Below are positions 10,769 to 37,784 of a stretch of 64,000 nucleotides of DNA, one piece after another. Both the position numbers and the translations under genes were made by a program. The DNA comes from a virus, in the IMG/VR virus record IMGVR_UViG_3300029959_000014, positions 1-64,000 of that record; one strand, 5' to 3'. The notes below the pieces were generated by a model. It saw only the letters and a list, made by a program, of their open reading frames with translations. It searched no databases and was not told the origin of the DNA. How positions within the stretch are numbered: position 1 is the first letter of the stretch; every line of letters starts with the position of its first letter.

Positions 10769-11494
10769 TTAATCACTCTCAATTCTAGGAGCCAGCATAT
10801 AGTAGCCAATTTCACAGCCACCAACTTGTATACTGATTTTACATGGCATGTCATTACCAGATGAAAATTCCACATCGCCCTTTAGATGTTTGAATAGACG
10901 TTTCATATAATCCATGTTATAGAGGCTACTGTTGTTGTCTACAGTTATCATGCCATTATCAATCTCGAAGGTGAGTTTATCATGATCGTTGCTAACGTAG
11001 AAGTGTGAATGGTTGTTTTGAATGTGAACACGAATTTTATCATAGTATGGTGAAGTTTTAGTCAGGAACTTACGCATGTCACTGGCCTTAATAATGGTTT
11101 TAGAAGTCCATATCATGGTTGGTTCGTTAGGTTCCTTTTTAACAACAGCATCAGCATCGTGCTTAAACACGCTACTATATTTACCACTTTCAAATTTCAA
11201 CATTGTTAATGTTTTATTTTCATCAGCAATCTGACTAATAGTTACAAATCCATAGGTGAGGTTGGCAGATGTTCGTAGGTTTTCAAGTTTAATAACAATG
11301 TCCTGTTCAGTGAGATCATAACACTCAAATACACTAGTTGGAATGGTCAGATTCACTAATGCGACATTTGCGAGATCAACAAACTTAACAATGATACCAT
11401 CAGTTTTAAAGTGCAGGGTAACTTCATCTTCACGAATAGCACACATCTGATTAATTATGTCTCTAAAGTGTAGATACTTGATAACAGTAGACAT
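10769..11494 (-). CDS. pcna: PCNA-type DNA polymerase sliding clamp
   Basis: The C-terminus GCEIGYYMLAPRIESD matches the PCNA signature (L.YYLAPKIEDE). The N-terminal DGIIVKFVDLANVALVNLTIPTSVFECYDL aligns to the first PCNA domain. Confidence 0.8.
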   Translation of the reverse strand: MSTVIKYLHFRDIINQMCAIREDEVTLHFKTDGIIVKFVDLANVALVNLTIPTSVFECYDLTEQDIVIKLENLRTSANLTYGFVTISQIADENKTLTMLKFESGKYSSVFKHDADAVVKKEPNEPTMIWTSKTIIKASDMRKFLTKTSPYYDKIRVHIQNNHSHFYVSNDHDKLTFEIDNGMITVDNNSSLYNMDYMKRLFKHLKGDVEFSSGNDMPCKISIQVGGCEIGYYMLAPRIESD

Positions 11495-12814: not shown

Positions 12815-13021
12815 TTACTTGTATGATGGAATTTTACTCATGATCCATGCAATTAATTTTTCCTTGAGATCGCTATTTCGAGTGCGATGAAGGTAGACGT
12901 TATAAACGGTTGCTATACAAAGTCCAAGTATACATATGATGCCGATGATCATTGTGAGATAAGGTTCCATACTAGTATTTTGGCGTTGAGGTTTAAAATA
13001 GTTACGTTTTATTAAATCCAA
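12815..13021 (-). CDS. small TM protein
   Basis: It has a central hydrophobic helix. Confidence 0.35.
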   Translation of the reverse strand: MDLIKRNYFKPQRQNTSMEPYLTMIIGIICILGLCIATVYNVYLHRTRNSDLKEKLIAWIMSKIPSYK

Positions 13022-13653
13022 TCTATAGTATCATTAATAGATGATTTATATTCTTGTGTTATATTATCAATAATTTGAGTTTTTTCTATATCTTCATTTA
13101 ATTTTTTAATTCGAATGTTATGTTCACTTTCTATTATTTCCTTTTCTAATCTATAGTTATAATCATCAAATAACGAATTCAATCTCTCAATGGTGATTTG
13201 TTTAATTATGTCATCATAAAACCAAGTATATTTACTACATACATGAAGCAATGAATCATTTCTTGATGAATATGTAATTGGTTGTATAAATTGCAACACT
13301 AACAACTTTTTTCCATCTATTAATTCACAATTAGGAGTAAATCTATTATATTTTTGGTTAATTGTTGGGCTTTCTCCATCTATTAAATATACATTTACAA
13401 AAGTATCACAATAATATTCTTTGCTTATAAATAATTCTATATACAATTTATTTTTATAAATTATTTGTATTTTACCATCAAAATATTTTTCATAATACCC
13501 ACTATACATTATTGAGATAATGAAAGAAATGAAGTTGATAGGAAGAATATCATTAGCATCTAAATTTGGAATTTGTTCATTTCTCTCAATACTTAATGTA
13601 AATAAATCAACATGTTCCATTTCCTCGTGACTATATATGTGCTCAAATGACAT
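13012..13653 (-). CDS. hypothetical protein (213 aa)
   Basis: It is a co-oriented ORF of low complexity. Confidence 0.4.
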   Translation of the reverse strand: MSFEHIYSHEEMEHVDLFTLSIERNEQIPNLDANDILPINFISFIISIMYSGYYEKYFDGKIQIIYKNKLYIELFISKEYYCDTFVNVYLIDGESPTINQKYNRFTPNCELIDGKKLLVLQFIQPITYSSRNDSLLHVCSKYTWFYDDIIKQITIERLNSLFDDYNYRLEKEIIESEHNIRIKKLNEDIEKTQIIDNITQEYKSSINDTIDWI

Positions 13654-13704: not shown

Positions 13705-15081
13705 TTAGATGAGTATTCCTACTCGTTTTCTAATGTCTGATATGTTTTCATCAATTAGAAGTTTTCCGTTGCTGTAGACGAGTGGTAGGTTGTCGAATCG
13801 ACCTGCCTTTGATTCTTTACCTGGAGTAGTTTTATTGACATTGTGCCATACTCCATTACGCTTTACCGCGCTGCACTTCATAGCAAATCGATTGGTGTCC
13901 CTGTTGTGATTTTGAAGAAGATTTCCACCACAACCAAATATAATGTTACTTGGAGCAAACTTATGCTTGATTACAGTTTCATTGTAGATTTTCTCTACCA
14001 TTGCAATATCGACACCATCGCCAATAATTATACTGATATGAGGATCTAGAACTTTATAGCCATGATCGTTTATGGTTCCTCCATAACAATCCCAAAGTGC
14101 TTGGAGAATTACTGGGGCATTTATTTCATGGCTTCCAGAATCAGGACGACACACAATACGACCTTTGCGATTCATTATCAATGACTTTAGTTCTTTACAG
14201 AAGTATTCATTGATTGCATGTTTCCAATCATAACTATCAATGACCAGTGAAATTATACAATCATCACCATATAGTTTATCGGTGGTTTCAATGATGTGTC
14301 GATAAGCCTCTAGTTCGTGATCTTTACCCCATGAAGTGATCGTGCTGTGTTCTGCTGCAACCACAGATACTCCGATTGGGAAAGTGTTGTCTGGGTGATA
14401 ATACCAACGAATTTTGTCTATTGCTGGGTTGTTGTCAGTTCCAATGAAATTTAGAAGATGTCCGATTCCACACATTTCAGCGCTCATCAATGAACTTGCA
14501 CCACGAAGGCCAAAGTCATTGAGGTGAACTGGGCTTACATCTTCGCCCGCTAGATCACAATACCTCTTAATGGTTTTATAAAATGCATGACTGATAGTTG
14601 CAGTATTGGTCATCGCATAGCAATGCATGAGCAAACTCTCAACGTAATTAGTAAGCCATGGAACTTTCGGATCAGTGTTTTCCAGTGCTAATACAGGAGT
14701 TCCTGGTTTTACAATGGTTCCTTCTGGGAGCGCATAAATGTTTATCGGTAAGTTTCCACCATGGGCCTTTTTAATGTGTTCCCAACCTTCATAATTGAAG
14801 AATGGTTTTCCGAATATCCCATTGCTAATTATACTGGATTCTTCAATAAAATCACGATCTATATAACTATCAATGAACCCATATTCTTTGAGGACAAATT
14901 GAAGTCCACACCATACAATTTCATTGAATTGTGCTCCATTACGTGGTTCCATGTAACTATACATTACTTCAAGATCCGGTGGATACTGAAAGTGGTGAGT
15001 TTGCTTGTAAGCATCCGTCAAATTGGGAAATGATCTTTCTGGCATAGTTCTCATCAACTTATAATTGTTATAACTGCTCAT
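13705..15081 (-). CDS. NAMPT: nicotinamide phosphoribosyltransferase (NAMPT)
   Basis: There is collinear similarity to NAMPT across the whole protein: DAYKQTHHFQYPP, ALPEGTIV.PGTPVLALENTDP...WLTNY, DFGLRG, AAEHSTITSWGKDHE, RPDSG, IIIGDGVD and IFGCGGNLLQ. Confidence 0.93.
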   Translation of the reverse strand: MSSYNNYKLMRTMPERSFPNLTDAYKQTHHFQYPPDLEVMYSYMEPRNGAQFNEIVWCGLQFVLKEYGFIDSYIDRDFIEESSIISNGIFGKPFFNYEGWEHIKKAHGGNLPINIYALPEGTIVKPGTPVLALENTDPKVPWLTNYVESLLMHCYAMTNTATISHAFYKTIKRYCDLAGEDVSPVHLNDFGLRGASSLMSAEMCGIGHLLNFIGTDNNPAIDKIRWYYHPDNTFPIGVSVVAAEHSTITSWGKDHELEAYRHIIETTDKLYGDDCIISLVIDSYDWKHAINEYFCKELKSLIMNRKGRIVCRPDSGSHEINAPVILQALWDCYGGTINDHGYKVLDPHISIIIGDGVDIAMVEKIYNETVIKHKFAPSNIIFGCGGNLLQNHNRDTNRFAMKCSAVKRNGVWHNVNKTTPGKESKAGRFDNLPLVYSNGKLLIDENISDIRKRVGILI

Positions 15082-15599
15082 TACACATCATTGTTATGTG
15101 ATCGAATAATTTGTTCAACTTCATTTCTAGTGTGTTCTGTAAAGTGCATTTTATGATAATTGGAATTATAATATGATAAAACTTCCTCCCAACCGCCTGT
15201 TGGATTGGTTCCTTGTGCTCTACCAGCACCACGCCAATCAGCAAGCATCTCACGAACATACTTGTATGGCATATCAAGGCACCTAAATGTTCCATTATCC
15301 AAAGCCATTATCCAGTATTGCCAGTGGTGTTTATTGGTTCGTTGATGATAATGCCACGCCAAATCAAATAGATTGTCACCGGTTTGAGATGCATCGTAAT
15401 ATCCAGTTTTATCACGAACAAACTTACCCTTACCTTCCTTTAAGTAGAAATAATTTGCATATGCATAGAAATTTGATGGTCTAAATTTGTTGATGTCATG
15501 AAGTATGCCCTGAATGTATAGTCCATCCTCAAAGCAATATTTCATCACCCAAAACTTGTGAGTAATCACATACTTAAAATATTTATAATATTGTTTCAT
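15081..15599 (-). CDS. hypothetical protein, possible small HD-type hydrolase
   Basis: It shows an H...HD spacing (ITHKF...ILHDINKF). Its stop abuts the NAMPT start, making it a likely co-transcribed partner. Confidence 0.3.
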   Translation of the reverse strand: MKQYYKYFKYVITHKFWVMKYCFEDGLYIQGILHDINKFRPSNFYAYANYFYLKEGKGKFVRDKTGYYDASQTGDNLFDLAWHYHQRTNKHHWQYWIMALDNGTFRCLDMPYKYVREMLADWRGAGRAQGTNPTGGWEEVLSYYNSNYHKMHFTEHTRNEVEQIIRSHNNDV

Positions 15600-17809: not shown

Positions 17810-19849
17810 TTAAAAAGTTATTTTCATAACTCTTTCTGTTGCACCCTTAACCTTCACAGTTACAGAAGATCGCTTGGTAGTAGAAAATCCTAGACCACTT
17901 AACTGATCTGTTGTTGATTTTACTGCTGACTTGCTAGACAAGGCTTCAAATACTCGTTTATGTTCATATAATTCTTGCTTTAGATACTCGTTGTAAAACC
18001 CTGATGGACTTTCAATGTTTATACAGTCCTTAAGCATGAAGAATACATGTCTATGACCAATTCCATCCTGTTCATCCCAGTAATTTGGTGAATACATTAT
18101 AACACTTACTGGAATAAACTGATTAGTTTTTATGTTCCACACATCTCGCGATGACATTTGAGATGATAACTTCTCCTGTATACTAAATCCATTACTATCT
18201 AATGTTACTTCTGCAACTACTACATTTTCTCCCGGTCGAAGTTCTTTATTATAAATAAATTCAAAGATCTGTCCATCAAATTCAATTTCTGCTTTGAAAC
18301 CTTCTTTACCACCTCGATTATTATACTGATGAACAAAGAACTTGTATACACCGTGAGACATACTTCGTAGATCAGTGTAAATGATGTTCTCTACTGCTGG
18401 AACACCTTCACGTGGTTGAGTAATATCCACATCGAGTATCCCACTACTTTTGTGTTTATATCCTTTATTGCTAAAGTAAATATGATTATTGCTTGGTTCT
18501 ATGCAATGAGCATCAAGATCATTGGGATCATGTTTACTGTTGTCATTCCACTGAATTGAAAATCGCAGGACTCCATCTACATTTCCACCAGCCATTTTTA
18601 CATTGGCTTTCATAGTAGAATCAGTGATGTTACCTGTGTATGCCCATGAGAATGCATTGTTCCACTTAAACATTGATTTACTATCAGCCTTTGCTGGTGC
18701 AATCAATGATACCATATTAGATGATAGTTTATTCTCAAATAACACTTCAATTTCGCGCACAGATGGCAACATATCACTTATGAATTTAGATACTGGGATT
18801 TCTTCTACTTTTGAGAACTTTTTAGGATCTACAGCAATATCTGATTTCAGACTTTCAAATATATCAGAACTTCCAGTAATACGCTTTGCTGCATCACGAT
18901 TACTAAACAGTATATTGTTGACTGTTATGTCATCAAGCGTTGCATATCTTCTACCAAGTGATGGTAGATATCCAAGTTCCTCTACTGTTTTTTGAGCATC
19001 TTCAAGCATTTTCTTTGTAAAGATTGCTTTAGGGCGCTTGTAATTTGTAGGGGCAACCACCTTCTCGTATCGTTTTACTGCTTCATCGAGTTCCATACCG
19101 GAGGTTATGTCAATTAGAAGTGTCCCTATACTGTGATTACGGATTTTACCAATTACCGGACCTGCTTCAACTGAATATTCCCAAGCAAACACATCATGAT
19201 CTGTTGCTGAACTATACAACAATTTATAGTGTTTAAACTTCTCAAGAACTGATTTCCATTCTTCACCTTTATACAATGTATTGGAATTTATAAGTTCAAG
19301 AACTGTGTCAATACTTTCACTGGACAGTTCATCAAGTGATCGCTTAAATACATCTTTAACTGCCTGATAATTACCTTTAACTGTGTCTAGAGTTTCACGA
19401 CCACTATAAACAAATCTAGATGGAAGATCAACATACAGGTGTTGCCATTCTTTTGCAATACCATCAATAAGTTCAAGATTTTTATCAACCACAACCTTAC
19501 TTTCTTTTGTTACAAATACACCGGAGATTGATTTACTCTTAATATATTTGTGTAGCGCATTAATTACTGTCTGGAATGTTAGATCATTTACTTGGAAATC
19601 CCAAATAGTAGATACCTTACCATCTTTAAGAATGACTACATTTCCAAGATTCTTAATGAATCTTCTACAACATGAACAATCATATTCTCGTCGCTTACGA
19701 TAGATTTCATTAGTTCCCACAGGAAATGCATCAAGATATACATTCCACATTTCATCGAGATCTACATCTACTGTGAACAGATGATTGATGTTAGATGTTT
19801 TGACTTCAAAATTTTTCTGAAGTGCTTTTTTAAATTCTACAAATTCCAT
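17810..19849 (-). CDS. large hypothetical protein (679 aa)
   Basis: It is the longest orphan. It has a CSCCRRF cluster and a DVDLD acidic motif, with no confident family match. Confidence 0.5.
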   Translation of the reverse strand: MEFVEFKKALQKNFEVKTSNINHLFTVDVDLDEMWNVYLDAFPVGTNEIYRKRREYDCSCCRRFIKNLGNVVILKDGKVSTIWDFQVNDLTFQTVINALHKYIKSKSISGVFVTKESKVVVDKNLELIDGIAKEWQHLYVDLPSRFVYSGRETLDTVKGNYQAVKDVFKRSLDELSSESIDTVLELINSNTLYKGEEWKSVLEKFKHYKLLYSSATDHDVFAWEYSVEAGPVIGKIRNHSIGTLLIDITSGMELDEAVKRYEKVVAPTNYKRPKAIFTKKMLEDAQKTVEELGYLPSLGRRYATLDDITVNNILFSNRDAAKRITGSSDIFESLKSDIAVDPKKFSKVEEIPVSKFISDMLPSVREIEVLFENKLSSNMVSLIAPAKADSKSMFKWNNAFSWAYTGNITDSTMKANVKMAGGNVDGVLRFSIQWNDNSKHDPNDLDAHCIEPSNNHIYFSNKGYKHKSSGILDVDITQPREGVPAVENIIYTDLRSMSHGVYKFFVHQYNNRGGKEGFKAEIEFDGQIFEFIYNKELRPGENVVVAEVTLDSNGFSIQEKLSSQMSSRDVWNIKTNQFIPVSVIMYSPNYWDEQDGIGHRHVFFMLKDCINIESPSGFYNEYLKQELYEHKRVFEALSSKSAVKSTTDQLSGLGFSTTKRSSVTVKVKGATERVMKITF

Positions 19850-32511: not shown

Positions 32512-33102
32512 TCATTCACCAATTACTTGTTCGATCACCCTAGACGCTATATATGTGCTGTTGTCAAGGTTGTGCTGATCGGTGTTAATGATAGTGTATG
32601 GGTAGTTGAACATTTCTAGAATCATTTCGTAGCGGGACTGGATCATGGTAGCATACTGTGTGGTCATTTTTTCATTACGTTTTTGGCAACGTGCTGTTAG
32701 GGTAGTAGGATCGGCCTTGGTGAAGATTACGTGATCAATCCAGAGGGTGGGTGGTTGGTGACGTTCGATGTAATCGATTGCTTCTAGGGTTGTCCATCCA
32801 TATTGATCTTCAATTGCAAGTGATTGATAGACAAAGTTACAGATCATGGAACGATCACTAATGATGAGATCGCGCTTATCTGGTATGATGACTTCATTGT
32901 AAAGTTGTTCGCGATCTTTTGCAAACAATTCAATTAACTTTAATGCATCATCACATTGTTTAATAAGTGCAATGTTGTGTGCATAATATGGTTCTTTGAC
33001 GAATAGAGCATTGGTGAATAATGGATCACTGGATAATCTACGATGCATTGATGATTTACCACTAGCATCACAACCAGCCAGTGTTATTAATTTGCGTGTC
33101 AT
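32512..33102 (-). CDS. P-loop deoxynucleoside/deoxynucleotide (thymidylate-kinase-like) kinase
   Basis: It has Walker A LAGCDASGKSS, a VKEPYY block and an ERS-like ISDRSMICNFVY block. Confidence 0.5.
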   Translation of the reverse strand: MTRKLITLAGCDASGKSSMHRRLSSDPLFTNALFVKEPYYAHNIALIKQCDDALKLIELFAKDREQLYNEVIIPDKRDLIISDRSMICNFVYQSLAIEDQYGWTTLEAIDYIERHQPPTLWIDHVIFTKADPTTLTARCQKRNEKMTTQYATMIQSRYEMILEMFNYPYTIINTDQHNLDNSTYIASRVIEQVIGE

Positions 33103-35234: not shown

Positions 35235-36122
35235 TTAAGTTGAATTCATATCTTCTAATTTGTTCTGGTAATAGGTGAAGATTGAACGTGGTGGAGACAT
35301 GAAATGTTTACGGGCTTCAGTGCTTACTTGTTTGGCAATTATCGGCATTGCGATCTTGACGTTTTTGAATTGTTCGGGGCCGATATCAGCAAGAACTTTA
35401 TCCAATGCCCCATAAATTTCACTGTCAGAAAGTGGTGGTAGTTCGACTTTATTGGGATCTATATCCTTTGGGATCTTATCAAGTTTTAAAGTATCGTGCT
35501 TTTCCTTGACGGCTAACAATCCATTGTTGTATGATGGTTTGTATGACTTGATTACAAAGCCCTCGATGTCTTGATGATCACGAAGCATACTGTCTCTGTA
35601 GGTGTAGAGATCTTCGATGCTGGTGTGTCTGGTGATTACCTGAACATCGATACATGGGATGTTACTGTGATGGCATTGTTGATGAAGGAAGTTATAGTGG
35701 GTGAATTGCTGGGTCTTGGAAGTCCATAGATCGAATGCTACGAATGATGGTTGATCATAGGTTTTAATACGGGTGGGAGATCGTCCTTTGGCCATCAACT
35801 CACCATAAAGGATGTAGTTATTACTCCAGTTACGAGCATCGAGTAATAGTTCCTTGATATTTTCTAGAAGTTGACCATCATCAATGCTTCGCGCAATACT
35901 CAAAAATGATGGATCTGCAATTGGTTGATTACGAGATCCCATTATGAGATTGTCTTCGTTGTCAAGATAGAAGCGAACATTGCTACCATCATGTTTAGGT
36001 TGCCAGAGAAGTTCTTCACCTAATATCATACCGGGACCAGGATACAATAATGCTATGCGATTGAGATGTGGATAAGTGATGTCACCGAGATTTAATGATA
36101 CTTGTTCTTTAACGTTAAACAT
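35235..36122 (-). CDS. ATP-dependent nucleotidyltransferase ligase (RNA/DNA ligase family)
   Basis: Motif I KHDGSN, motif III YILYGEL, motif IV EGFVIKSY and motif V LAVKEK are present in canonical order. Confidence 0.55.
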   Translation of the reverse strand: MFNVKEQVSLNLGDITYPHLNRIALLYPGPGMILGEELLWQPKHDGSNVRFYLDNEDNLIMGSRNQPIADPSFLSIARSIDDGQLLENIKELLLDARNWSNNYILYGELMAKGRSPTRIKTYDQPSFVAFDLWTSKTQQFTHYNFLHQQCHHSNIPCIDVQVITRHTSIEDLYTYRDSMLRDHQDIEGFVIKSYKPSYNNGLLAVKEKHDTLKLDKIPKDIDPNKVELPPLSDSEIYGALDKVLADIGPEQFKNVKIAMPIIAKQVSTEARKHFMSPPRSIFTYYQNKLEDMNST

Positions 36123-36640
36123 TAAGTGAACAAATATAATTTACCATATATAAAGAAAGAGATAAAAGTTATATAATAGAAATGTTAAAAAGGTGTCAAA
36201 TAGTTTGTTATAATCGTGTGATGGGATTGATCCATCAAATGATTTAGTGTGGTAATAAGAGAAAATCACGAAAATAATTATACATACATGTAACTCACCG
36301 GCTTCATTACTAGAATTATCCGGCCAAAAATATTAGATGGTGATGAACCAAGTCTACTATCAACGTGTGGATGGTTTGGAAATTTAATGATGGAGTCCAC
36401 ATCAGCCCATCGTATACCGCCATTCCATTAAGCGGTCAAGTTTGTTGTAATGTGATCATTGTGGAAGACTATTCATTGTTTATCCACATGTTTTAAACTT
36501 CTACCCGTGATAGCCGTAAATAACTCAATTGTTATCATTGTGGTCATCTATCTACCGTTTGTTTATTGACCAGCAGGGAAGTTCTAGTCTTGCATGAAGT
36601 TACCTTCATTCTGCACATTACATAACTTGTTTGCATTCTC

Positions 36641-36700
36641 GATATCACTCCCATGCCTGAATGCTAGGCCGAACGTCACGTTTGATATCCAACGTCAACC
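36641..36700. repeat. ~60-nt direct repeat unit 1 (GATATCACTCC...GTCACGTTTGATATCCAACG)
   Basis: A second copy lies at 36860-36915 and flanks the tRNA-like element. Confidence 0.45.
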
Positions 36701-36768
36701 GCTTATACTGTTTTTATCGGTTGAAATATCCTACAGGGCATCCATAATAAATGGTTGCTCAAGTTAGC

Positions 36769-36849
36769 AGTGGATTGATGATGGTGAAAGGAATTGAACC
36801 TTCGTTAACCAACATTAGACGATAGCAAACCGGTCAGACTATCGTAGTA
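36769..36849 (-). ncRNA. tRNA-like element a (7/7-bp acceptor GATGGTG/CACCATC plus T-arm GAAGG-TTCAATT-CCTTT, 81 nt)
   Basis: It has a perfect acceptor helix and a canonical T-loop, but the 49-nt interior (containing a 7-bp ACGATAG/CTATCGT stem) does not give a canonical D-arm and anticodon-arm fold. Confidence 0.4.
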
Positions 36850-36859
36850 ATACACCATC

Positions 36860-36915
36860 AATACCTTCTGATATCACTCCTACGGCGAAGGCAACCTGCG
36901 AGTCACGTTTGATAC
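36860..36915. repeat. ~60-nt direct repeat unit 2
   Basis: It pairs with 36641-36700. Confidence 0.45.
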
Positions 36916-37187
36916 CCAACGCACCAGATCGAGCGGTTTCACCTGGTGAATCACATTCCAACTTAATGGACTTGCCGCAGTGCTGATAACCAGCAATAGG
37001 AATTGCACCTATATCTCCACCAGGAACGATGGTGAGATTCTGTTACTCCATGCTGGTTAGAACTCTTTGTTCGGTCACCCAATTTGTTTCCATGATAACG
37101 CTCGTGGATAATCGCAGTAAACTTCCAAGCGGTAAATTCTGTTTATTCGTGCACTAATAAACTTATTGGTGGGTTTACTTCCACCTA

Positions 37188-37251
37188 TAACTGATGGGTG
37201 GATTCGAACCAACCCGTTGCACACCCATTGTGTCATCGGTTACGGTTGCCA
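37188..37251 (-). ncRNA. tRNA-like minihelix b (acceptor AACCGAT/ATCAGTT, T-arm GGTTCGAATCC)
   Basis: It has a T-loop TTCGAAT and a 6/7 acceptor pairing. Only ~19 nt separate the 5' acceptor strand from the T-arm, so the D and anticodon arms are absent. Confidence 0.4.
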
Positions 37252-37290
37252 CATTTGCGCAGATGTGGTTTACAACCATTTTATCAGGTT
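37243..37290. repeat. 48-nt direct repeat, copy 1
   Basis: It contains a CCACAT-loop8-ATGTGG hairpin and supplies the 5' acceptor strand of minihelix b. It is 47/48 identical to 37551-37598. Confidence 0.6.
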
Positions 37291-37403
37291 TTGGATTTGT
37301 TCCTGGGAAATTAAACCTGCAAAACGCCCACGGTTAACGAGCGTGCCTCGGCGGTTTAACAACTTTGATAATGGGGTTCTAAACCTGCTGAATTGAGACC
37401 CAC

Positions 37404-37461
37404 ATAACCAGTAGTGGATTCGAACCACTCCTCTTTCTCTTCCACCCGTCTGTGGCTGGTT
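37404..37461 (-). ncRNA. tRNA-like minihelix c (perfect T-arm AGTGG-TTCGAAT-CCACT)
   Basis: It has a 5/5 T-stem, an acceptor AACCAGC/ACTGGTT (6/7) and an internal CCAC-AGACGG-GTGG hairpin. Confidence 0.4.
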
Positions 37462-37510
37462 ACTCTCCTTACTCTCGCCTGGGATTTTTATCTCGCAGAG
37501 GATTTCAGGG

Positions 37511-37559
37511 ATAACCGATTGGGGATTCGAACCCCTTAATTCCCATTTGGTTTATCGGT
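37511..37559 (-). ncRNA. tRNA-like minihelix d (acceptor AACCGAT/ATCGGTT 7/7, T-arm GGGG-TTCGAAT-CCCC)
   Basis: It has a perfect 7-bp acceptor and a 17-nt linker to the T-arm. Its 5' strand lies within the 48-nt repeat copy 2. Confidence 0.45.
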
Positions 37560-37598
37560 TACGGTTGCCACATTTGCGCAGATGTGGTTTACAACCAT
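37551..37598. repeat. 48-nt direct repeat, copy 2
   Basis: It is a near-identical copy of 37243-37290. It is followed by a GNRA-capped hairpin GTTGGGATT-GCAA-AATCCAAC. Confidence 0.6.
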
Positions 37599-37784
37599 TT
37601 ATCCGTTTGTTGGATTTGCAATCCCAACCAGGCGTCTTACATTCCCTGTCACCTGCATTCCATCGTCGTAAAGACTTGCCTGCAGGGAAACCATCATACA
37701 AGATTTGACCTTGCACGATGGCTAATTCACTTACCGGGTCATCACTCCCGTATACATTATATTACACGTAATATTATTTAATAG

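Follow-up and report, generated by a model that had tools for sequence, protein, structure and literature searches.

Introduction

Phages can escape immunity that depletes nicotinamide adenine dinucleotide (NAD+) by reconstituting it, and the recently recognised pathways NARP1, NARP2 and NARP3 have been described as consisting of two proteins each. Here, we analysed a 64,000-nucleotide stretch of viral DNA (positions 1 to 64,000 of IMG/VR record IMGVR_UViG_3300029959_000014; hereafter the window), in which the gene of a nicotinamide phosphoribosyltransferase (NAMPT, NadV/Nampt type) overlaps that of a 172-residue protein of DUF5662 (PF18907), a family already catalogued without known function. 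We report that in one clade of environmental phages a Nampt of predicted NARP2 type is repeatedly coupled to this third, uncharacterised protein, and that DUF5662 is in all likelihood a divergent metal-dependent phosphohydrolase of the HD superfamily, as its structure model suggests. The chemistry of NAMPT is established: it converts nicotinamide and phosphoribosyl pyrophosphate (PRPP) into nicotinamide mononucleotide (NMN).

The closest described system is NARP2 of Vibrio phage KVP40, composed of the Nampt NadV and the NatV protein, an NMN adenylyltransferase (NMNAT) that carries a Nudix domain. As in NARP2, the phage enzyme is predicted to be a Nampt of the PRPP-using type, relatives of the window phage have a CTP_transf_like NMNAT beside or near NAMPT, and a hydrolase, here a predicted one, is attached to the module. 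In contrast to NARP2, this window holds no NMNAT, its NAMPT shares no more than 42% identity with that of any cultured phage, and the HD-like DUF5662 is encoded by a separate gene coupled to NAMPT, whereas the Nudix domain of KVP40 is fused to the NMNAT. The locus also differs from NARP1 (Adps and Namat), since the window has no Prs-like Adps and the relatives pair NAMPT with NMNAT.

Outside the phage pathways, the HD-family hydrolase YqeK of Firmicutes and Mycoplasma occurs as a fusion with NadD or in a gene cluster with it, and proofreading of NAD analogues and hydrolysis of diadenosine tetraphosphate (Ap4A) have been proposed for YqeK; DUF5662 resembles it as a predicted two-metal hydrolase of HD type that is genomically tied to an enzyme of NAD biosynthesis. 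Another comparison is offered by the end-healing enzyme HD-Pnk of Runella slithyformis, whose gene cluster includes a ligase and the NAD+-dependent Tpt1.

The NAMPT gene and its junction with DUF5662

On sequence grounds, the 458-residue product is certainly a nicotinamide phosphoribosyltransferase. It matches the Pfam domains NAMPT_N (residues 21-115, 3.3e-22) and NAPRTase (residues 186-428, 7.3e-38), the phage family phrog_448 (2.7e-126) and the NCBIfam equivalog PRK09198, the last at 443 bits, above its cut-off of 405, and scores 258-267 bits against the solved human and Xanthomonas Nampt. The catalytic-histidine motif AAEHSTIT (VAAEHSTITSWGKDHE) is intact and aligns with both structures, as do RPDSG, DFGLRG (DFGxRG), GTD and GGNLLQ (GGxLLQ). 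The histidine of AAEHST in Nampt is the catalytic, autophosphorylated residue. Of 50,697 phage records, 2,019 contain a homolog, the best identity being no higher than 42%, and the window protein is 52-63% identical to the NAMPTs of its DUF5662-linked relatives; at the DNA level, positions 13705-15599 matched none of the same 50,697 records. Scores were lower (205-212 bits) against PDB entries 9ke8, 9w5w and 9w5x, which we take to be phage Namat. Pfam searches of all non-overlapping open reading frames (ORFs) of at least 80 residues detected no Prs-like Adps in the window, and no PRPP synthetase. Given the lack of an Adps, we place the enzyme with the NARP2 rather than the NARP1 type, its use of PRPP rather than ADPR-PP as donor being a prediction.

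Both genes lie on the minus strand (Table 1), and within the junction gtgTAATGagc the TAA stop of DUF5662 and the ATG start of NAMPT have base 15081 in common. An earlier note on this DNA, made from the sequence alone, had described a full-length NAMPT whose start abuts the stop of an upstream ORF, and both statements hold. Translational coupling of the two genes is likely, because no Shine-Dalgarno-like sequence precedes the NAMPT start at TAATG. No terminator-like site was found on the minus strand from 17124 to 13705, nor did any promoter or terminator signal rise above chance. The gene call deposited in ENA for the same contig starts NAMPT at M10, leaving a 26-nt gap to DUF5662. The nine residues ahead of M10 (extension NYKLMR..ER.F) are kept in the relatives L085 and L093, and a similarly tight junction (1-nt or 4-nt overlap, or 4-nt gap) recurs in four relatives (L085, L093, L201 and the contig carrying P0014); therefore, the overlapping ATG appears the likelier start.

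Conservation, fold and enzyme class of DUF5662

The 172-residue protein matches PF18907 over nearly the whole profile (positions 3-155 of 156), scoring 111.9 bits where the gathering cut-off is 27 (2.9e-32), and also belongs to phrog_20637, which has no assigned function; NCBIfam holds no model for DUF5662. The family is large, with 4,885 clusters (50% identity, E <=1e-3) among 1.84 billion representatives, and essentially purely viral. It occurs on at least 511 IMG/VR contigs, and cellular genomes gave only 83 matches (one genome each from 185,579 species), mostly on phage-like contigs of metagenome-assembled genomes (MAGs). Only 10 GenBank phage records contain it, Moorella phage MTATph1 being the sole cultured case. 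Several of the genome matches lie on archaeal MAG contigs. The protein stands alone at 160-180 residues without sensor or membrane domains, and a scan of longer members for informative domain fusions found none.

Twelve residues (H34, D35, H85, N89, H91, H92, W93, Q94, E117, M118, D121 and G124) are invariant across 48 homologs, at least 90% of which also retain H14, giving the pattern H14-x19-H34-D35. H34 and D35 sit within GIxHDLSKF, in which HDxxK is present and which resembles the canonical LLHDIGK of HD domains. The structure model is confident and all-helical apart from one small hairpin; it superposes on solved HD domains, and the protein carries the conserved H...HD...D metal-ligand motif of the superfamily. 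In the structural ranking, PA4781 stands at rank 5, the PAS/HD-GYP protein DvhD at rank 7, 4mcw at rank 10 and cyanophage DatZ at rank 11, with dGTPase, YqeK and V-cGAP3 below. We conclude that DUF5662 is very probably a divergent metal-dependent phosphohydrolase of the HD superfamily. Its active site may hold two metals, as in HD-GYP and PgpH, and H14, H34, D35, H85, H91, H92 and D121 are its candidate metal ligands.

Several results count against this assignment. A Foldseek search of the model against PDB and BFVD returned nothing significant, no relative of DUF5662 turned up among PDB sequences by sequence or profile search, and no significant sequence or profile similarity to any HD family was found. 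PF01966 was weakly matched (E 0.06) by two of the 48 members, and hhalign gave a probability of 0.9%, short of significance, when run against four solved HD-GYP domains from PDB alignments, the only aligned segment pairing HD motif with HD motif. That pairing and the weak PF01966 matches, like the ligand spacing given below, nevertheless point towards an HD-like protein. The convergence of the candidate ligands on one site is likewise putative. Of the phosphohydrolase suggested in the earlier note from the H...HD spacing, the conserved residues H14, H34 and D35 and the helical, HD-like model stood up, whereas profile similarity to HD proteins did not reach significance. DUF5662 falls outside every characterised HD family, and its placement at the level of the fold is new here.

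The best structural matches, HD-GYP, PgpH and V-cGAP3, are cyclic-dinucleotide phosphodiesterases, and the H..HD..HH..D spacing is alike, HD to HH and HH to D being 57 and 30 residues in DUF5662 and 53-55 and 29 in HD-GYP domains. Both observations would also suit a two-metal HD phosphodiesterase that destroys the cyclic (oligo)nucleotides of CBASS, Pycsar or type III CRISPR immunity, independent of NAD+ salvage and merely co-located with NAMPT, and a large (4885 clusters), near virus-confined, stand-alone and context-variable family is what accessory or anti-defence genes usually look like. However, DUF5662 has NKHHWQYW where HD-GYP has HHExxDGxGYP, so that the GYP motif is absent, and its profile similarity to HD-GYP and PgpH (7TMR-HD) is not significant. 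The spacing of its first histidine is shorter and its middle histidine is placed elsewhere, and it has none of the sensor or membrane domains of those proteins. The literature searched lent no support either, a search for phage HD-domain anti-defence phosphodiesterases remaining without result, and the clade-specific tie to NAMPT would be left unexplained; we regard this alternative as distinctly unlikely.

Linkage of DUF5662 and NAMPT across relatives

For linkage, we considered loci whose DUF5662 is at least 52% identical to that of the window and which have enough flanking sequence, nine lineages including the window; L087 and L203 end too early for a call. NAMPT lies within 4 kb of DUF5662 in all nine, whereas the order, flanking genes and intervening genes vary. 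In five lineages the two ORFs abut or overlap, and both gene orders occur; overlap in either order hints at a complex of the two proteins. DUF5662 precedes NAMPT with a 1-nt overlap in the window and in the contig carrying P0014 (67% identity to the window DUF5662), and with a 4-nt overlap in L085 (65%), where a CTP_transf_like NMNAT follows 1 kb downstream; in L093 (76%) the order is radical S-adenosylmethionine (SAM) protein, DUF5662 and NAMPT, the last two separated by a 4-nt gap with GGAG. The order is reversed in L201 (70%), in which NAMPT, DUF5662 with a 1-nt overlap, and a P-loop kinase follow one another. Other genes intervene in L084/L089 (70%; NAMPT, radical SAM protein, DUF5662, kinase) and in L202 (67%; NMNAT, RtcB, DUF5662, kinase, NAMPT), and in L086 and L088 (52-53%) an NMNAT-x-NAMPT-x-Tmk array is followed by DUF5662 3.8 kb further on. 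Apart from one small L085 ORF, DUF5662 and NAMPT are the only genes of L084 and L085 (12.5 kb) with homologs in the window.

The NAMPT-linked DUF5662 proteins form a single clade in a neighbour-joining tree, with P0026, which has no NAMPT nearby, as its sister. Beyond this clade, an independent second instance of the association is L156, a contig binned to Candidatus Saccharibacteria with a phage-like build of many small same-strand ORFs, in which a distant DUF5662 (36% identical) is followed about 0.7 kb downstream by a NAMPT (43% identical). Within the clade a functional tie between the two proteins is likely, though not proven, because their proximity persists despite changed order, flanking genes and intervening genes, a classical mark of linkage kept by selection. 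What is new is that one DUF5662 subfamily is coupled to Nampt in a clade-specific way that withstands rearrangement, phage NAMPT and NARP2 being already known.

The wider family and the local gene density speak against such a tie. No NAMPT was found near DUF5662 at 80 IMG/VR loci with 37-49% identical proteins (1.22 Mb of flanks) or at about 17 metagenome loci, and one, that of L156, was found among 80 genome loci, so that about 180 distant loci in all yielded a single NAMPT; conversely, none of nine NAMPT-centred viral loci from an alignment-based scan had DUF5662 nearby, and a single-protein NAMPT scan of viral contigs found no close relative. The neighbours of distant members are heterogeneous, including glycosyltransferases, portal proteins, methylases, uracil-DNA glycosylase (UDG), family-B DNA polymerase (PolB), ThyA, ribonucleotide reductase (RNR), dCMP deaminase and dUTPase; Pfam annotation of 150 immediate neighbours gave an equally mixed list, and BLAST clustering of neighbours at 80 viral loci found no recurrent partner family. 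In the window itself, 45 of 132 same-strand neighbour pairs overlap or are separated by at most 5 nt, and the tight DUF5662-NAMPT junction on its own is therefore no evidence of a functional pair. Shared descent inside a shuffled early-gene region may explain why the clade has both genes. The pair put forward in the earlier note is thus conserved within one clade, in nine of nine lineages, and is not an association of the family at large.

These observations leave room for neighbourhood by genome architecture only, in which DUF5662 would be a general HD-type hydrolase of the nucleotide pool or of housekeeping (acting, for example, on dNTPs, dNMPs or damaged nucleotides) among the early genes of replication and nucleotide metabolism, a region that houses NAMPT too, without a specific functional tie to NAD+. 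Distant members without NAMPT do stand beside ThyA, RNR, dCMP deaminase, DCD/dUTPase, PolB, PDDEXK nuclease, RecA and UDG, NAMPT is all but missing from the distant loci, a third of the window's junctions are just as tight, and L086 and L088, which share the window's backbone synteny, have the two genes 3.8 kb apart. Against this stand the presence of NAMPT within 4 kb in every lineage of the clade in spite of changed order, within-pair orientation and flanks, the abutting or overlapping ORFs of five lineages and the independent distant case L156, and we judge it somewhat unlikely.

A second partner recurs in part of the clade. A conserved P-loop kinase of 149-160 residues directly follows DUF5662 in three lineages (Table 1); it weakly matches AAA_33, and profile searches match it to PSTK (1.5e-3) and weakly to Pnkp1. 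The DUF5662-then-kinase order is the HD-then-Pnk order of Runella HD-Pnk, RtcB lies directly ahead of DUF5662 in L202 and at most some 5 kb from it in L072/L073 and L170, and the window encodes an RNA ligase. Such neighbours would suit RNA end healing, with DUF5662 as the 2',3'-cyclic phosphodiesterase/3'-phosphatase of a split HD-Pnk that, together with a P-loop 5'-OH polynucleotide kinase and RNA ligase, would repair tRNAs cut by host anticodon nucleases, NAD+ serving Tpt1-type or ligase steps. However, in the relatives the putative counterparts of the HD-Pnk domains are separate genes; neither the window nor L085, L086/L088 or any distant locus has the kinase, the RNA ligase of the window lies 20 kb from DUF5662, and NAMPT is the more constant partner, in nine lineages against three for the kinase. 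RNA end healing is thus quite unlikely as the function of DUF5662.

The 282-residue radical SAM protein directly ahead of DUF5662 in two lineages, L084 and L093, carries a CGCPVGCVFCGTG motif that by eye resembles the Cys motif of RlmN/Cfr. More distant radical SAM homologs occur a few kb from DUF5662 in L180, L120 (the Moorella phage) and L037.

The adenylyltransferase step

The earlier note had also remarked that an NMNAT is missing, and within the 64-kb window this is borne out: Pfam searches found neither NMNAT nor Nudix domains, and tblastn at E up to 10, using the L085, L086 and L088 enzymes as queries, likewise detected no NMNAT. The same tblastn searches excluded NMNAT remnants in the ORF-free stretch at 36.1-37.8 kb. 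The window is part of a genome, relatives being on contigs of 114-133 kb, and DUF5662, NAMPT and a canonical CTP_transf_like NMNAT occur together in four relatives (L085, L202, L086 and L088). The 213-residue ORF downstream of NAMPT has no Pfam or PHROG match, no HxGH motif and no homolog beside NAMPT in the relatives.

The absence of NMNAT, Nudix and PRPP-synthetase genes from the window had invited the proposal that DUF5662 completes NAD+ synthesis as a non-orthologous NMNAT replacement or as a Nudix-type enzyme. However, Pfam finds no CTP_transf_like or NUDIX match in the 172-residue protein, and neither its sequence nor its all-helical model shows a Rossmann fold, an (H/T)xGH motif or a Nudix box. 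The proposal also fails because the four relatives pair DUF5662 and NAMPT with an NMNAT, the window is partial and 94% of Nampt-encoding phages are reported to encode Nmnat as well. The replacement idea is close to refuted, and its Nudix variant falls with it.

The NMNATs of the relatives (328-376 residues) have a C-terminal CTP_transf_like domain (GxFNPFHIGH) and a conserved N-terminal extension of about 185 residues with EPHRYYH..H and DLHD motifs, which looks HD-like by eye and is not recognised by Pfam or PDB sequence searches. They may be HD-NMNAT fusions, in place of the Nudix domain of KVP40 NatV.

A P-loop kinase encoded elsewhere in the window (32512-33102) matches Thymidylate_kin (4.9e-9) about as well as AAA_28 (8.4e-8), a family that includes the ribosylnicotinamide-kinase domain of NadR. 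Its homolog stands directly behind NMNAT-x-NAMPT-x in L086 and L088, and the product could be a dNMP kinase or an enzyme linked to NAD salvage.

Discussion

We tentatively propose, giving it somewhat less than an even chance, that the DUF5662 of this clade is an accessory hydrolase acting on an NAD-derived nucleotide within a NARP2-like salvage module. First, DUF5662 and NAMPT would be co-transcribed and probably translationally coupled, the pair being part of the module by which a large environmental phage salvages NAD+. Second, DUF5662 would serve that module as an HD-type phosphohydrolase, not as an adenylyltransferase. Its candidate substrates are ADP-ribose, a cyclic form of ADP-ribose, NADP(H) and aberrant NAD analogues, and their hydrolysis could recycle ribose-5-phosphate and AMP into PRPP synthesis or dispose of by-products. 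Third, the step from NMN to NAD+ would fall to another protein, an NMNAT whose gene lies beyond the window or which comes from the host. YqeK with NadD and the Nudix domain of KVP40 NatV are precedents for such a link between a hydrolase and an NAD enzyme. It counts against the proposal that DUF5662, or PF18907, was not mentioned in the literature searched, and that the enzymatic activity, metal content and substrate enter it as predictions; the part of the pair in NAD+ salvage or counter-defence is likewise what we infer.

If the link is functional, it would add a step to phage NAD+ salvage, be it substrate recycling, proofreading or signal removal, and would provide a first clue to the function of a family with thousands of viral members. 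In a bolder form, DUF5662 would be a novel and almost exclusively viral family of two-metal phosphodiesterases of HD type, whose NAMPT-coupled clade is the third component of phage NAD+ reconstitution, perhaps converting ADP-ribose or TIR-made cyclic ADP-ribose into AMP and ribose-5-phosphate, and whose remaining members (about 4,900 clusters in the wider family) are a reservoir of counter-defence enzymes degrading nucleotide signals. One operon would then clear or silence the products of NAD+-depleting immunity and also supply PRPP for NAMPT. This extended picture is unlikely to hold as a whole.

Other features of the window and its relatives

Table 1. Positions of the gene pair and of other features in the window and in related sequences
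Feature	Sequence	Position	Strand	Description
DUF5662 (PF18907) protein	window	15081-15599	minus	172 aa, ATG start; predicted divergent HD-type phosphohydrolase
NAMPT (nicotinamide phosphoribosyltransferase, NadV/Nampt type)	window	13705-15081	minus	458 aa, ATG start
TAATG junction	window	15079-15083	minus	DUF5662 stop and NAMPT start overlap by one base
ORF downstream of NAMPT	window	13012-13653		213 aa
PCNA_N-like protein	window	10769-11494	minus	241 aa
phrog_1735 protein	window	17810-19849	minus	679 aa
P-loop kinase	window	32512-33102	minus
RNA ligase	window	35235-36122
Stretch without long ORF	window	36123-37784		1.66 kb, on the coding strand
tRNA	window	36779-36859	minus	called by Rfam
tRNA-Asn(gtt)	window	~36987-37058	minus	relaxed ARAGORN
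T-arm-like copies	window	37198-37597		five copies
Direct repeat	window	37211-37299 and 37530-37618		89 nt, 80% identity
P-loop kinase after DUF5662	L201	2671-3120		65-72% identical between lineages
P-loop kinase after DUF5662	L084	6494-6976		65-72% identical between lineages
P-loop kinase after DUF5662	L202	5163-5612		65-72% identical between lineages
Radical SAM protein	L084	5094-5942		ahead of DUF5662
Radical SAM protein	L093	453-1298		ahead of DUF5662
NMNAT	L085	8943-9959
NMNAT	L202	2437-3423
NMNAT	L086	1-564		partial
NMNAT	L088	1-711		partial
Distant DUF5662 and NAMPT	L156	4550-7249
Histone-fold protein	L201	370-618		82 aa
Family-B DNA polymerase with intein	L090	2780-6148

The window has 33.7% G+C, and its genes lie almost all on the minus strand. 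Pfam searches identified a family-B DNA polymerase, AAA_24, a PD-(D/E)XK nuclease, MT-A70, a UvrD-like helicase, a RuvB-like ATPase, RNase H, a pyrimidine-dimer glycosylase, an RNA ligase and a thymidylate-kinase-like protein, a gene content that identifies the window as a replication and early-gene region of a large phage. The gene of the UvrD-like helicase lies upstream of DUF5662 and ends just 4 nt ahead of its start; a Cas3-like unit of helicase and HD protein was ruled out, the helicase being absent from every other DUF5662 locus.

Two genes upstream of the helicase, the 679-residue protein matches phrog_1735 end to end (7.8e-259), recorded as DUF8224, and is a large, well-conserved phage protein without assigned function. 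The 241-residue protein has a weak PCNA_N match (E 0.005) and no match to clamps of the T4 gp45 type. Among the relatives, L201 encodes a histone-fold protein just upstream of NAMPT, and in L090, which also bears DUF5662, the family-B DNA polymerase is split by an intein with a LAGLIDADG endonuclease.

The stretch without a long ORF contains a tRNA called by Rfam and missed by default ARAGORN, a further tRNA-Asn(gtt) found by relaxed ARAGORN, five T-arm-like GTGGATTCGAACCA copies and a direct repeat, and may represent clustered tRNA-like genes that are degenerate or of unusual form.

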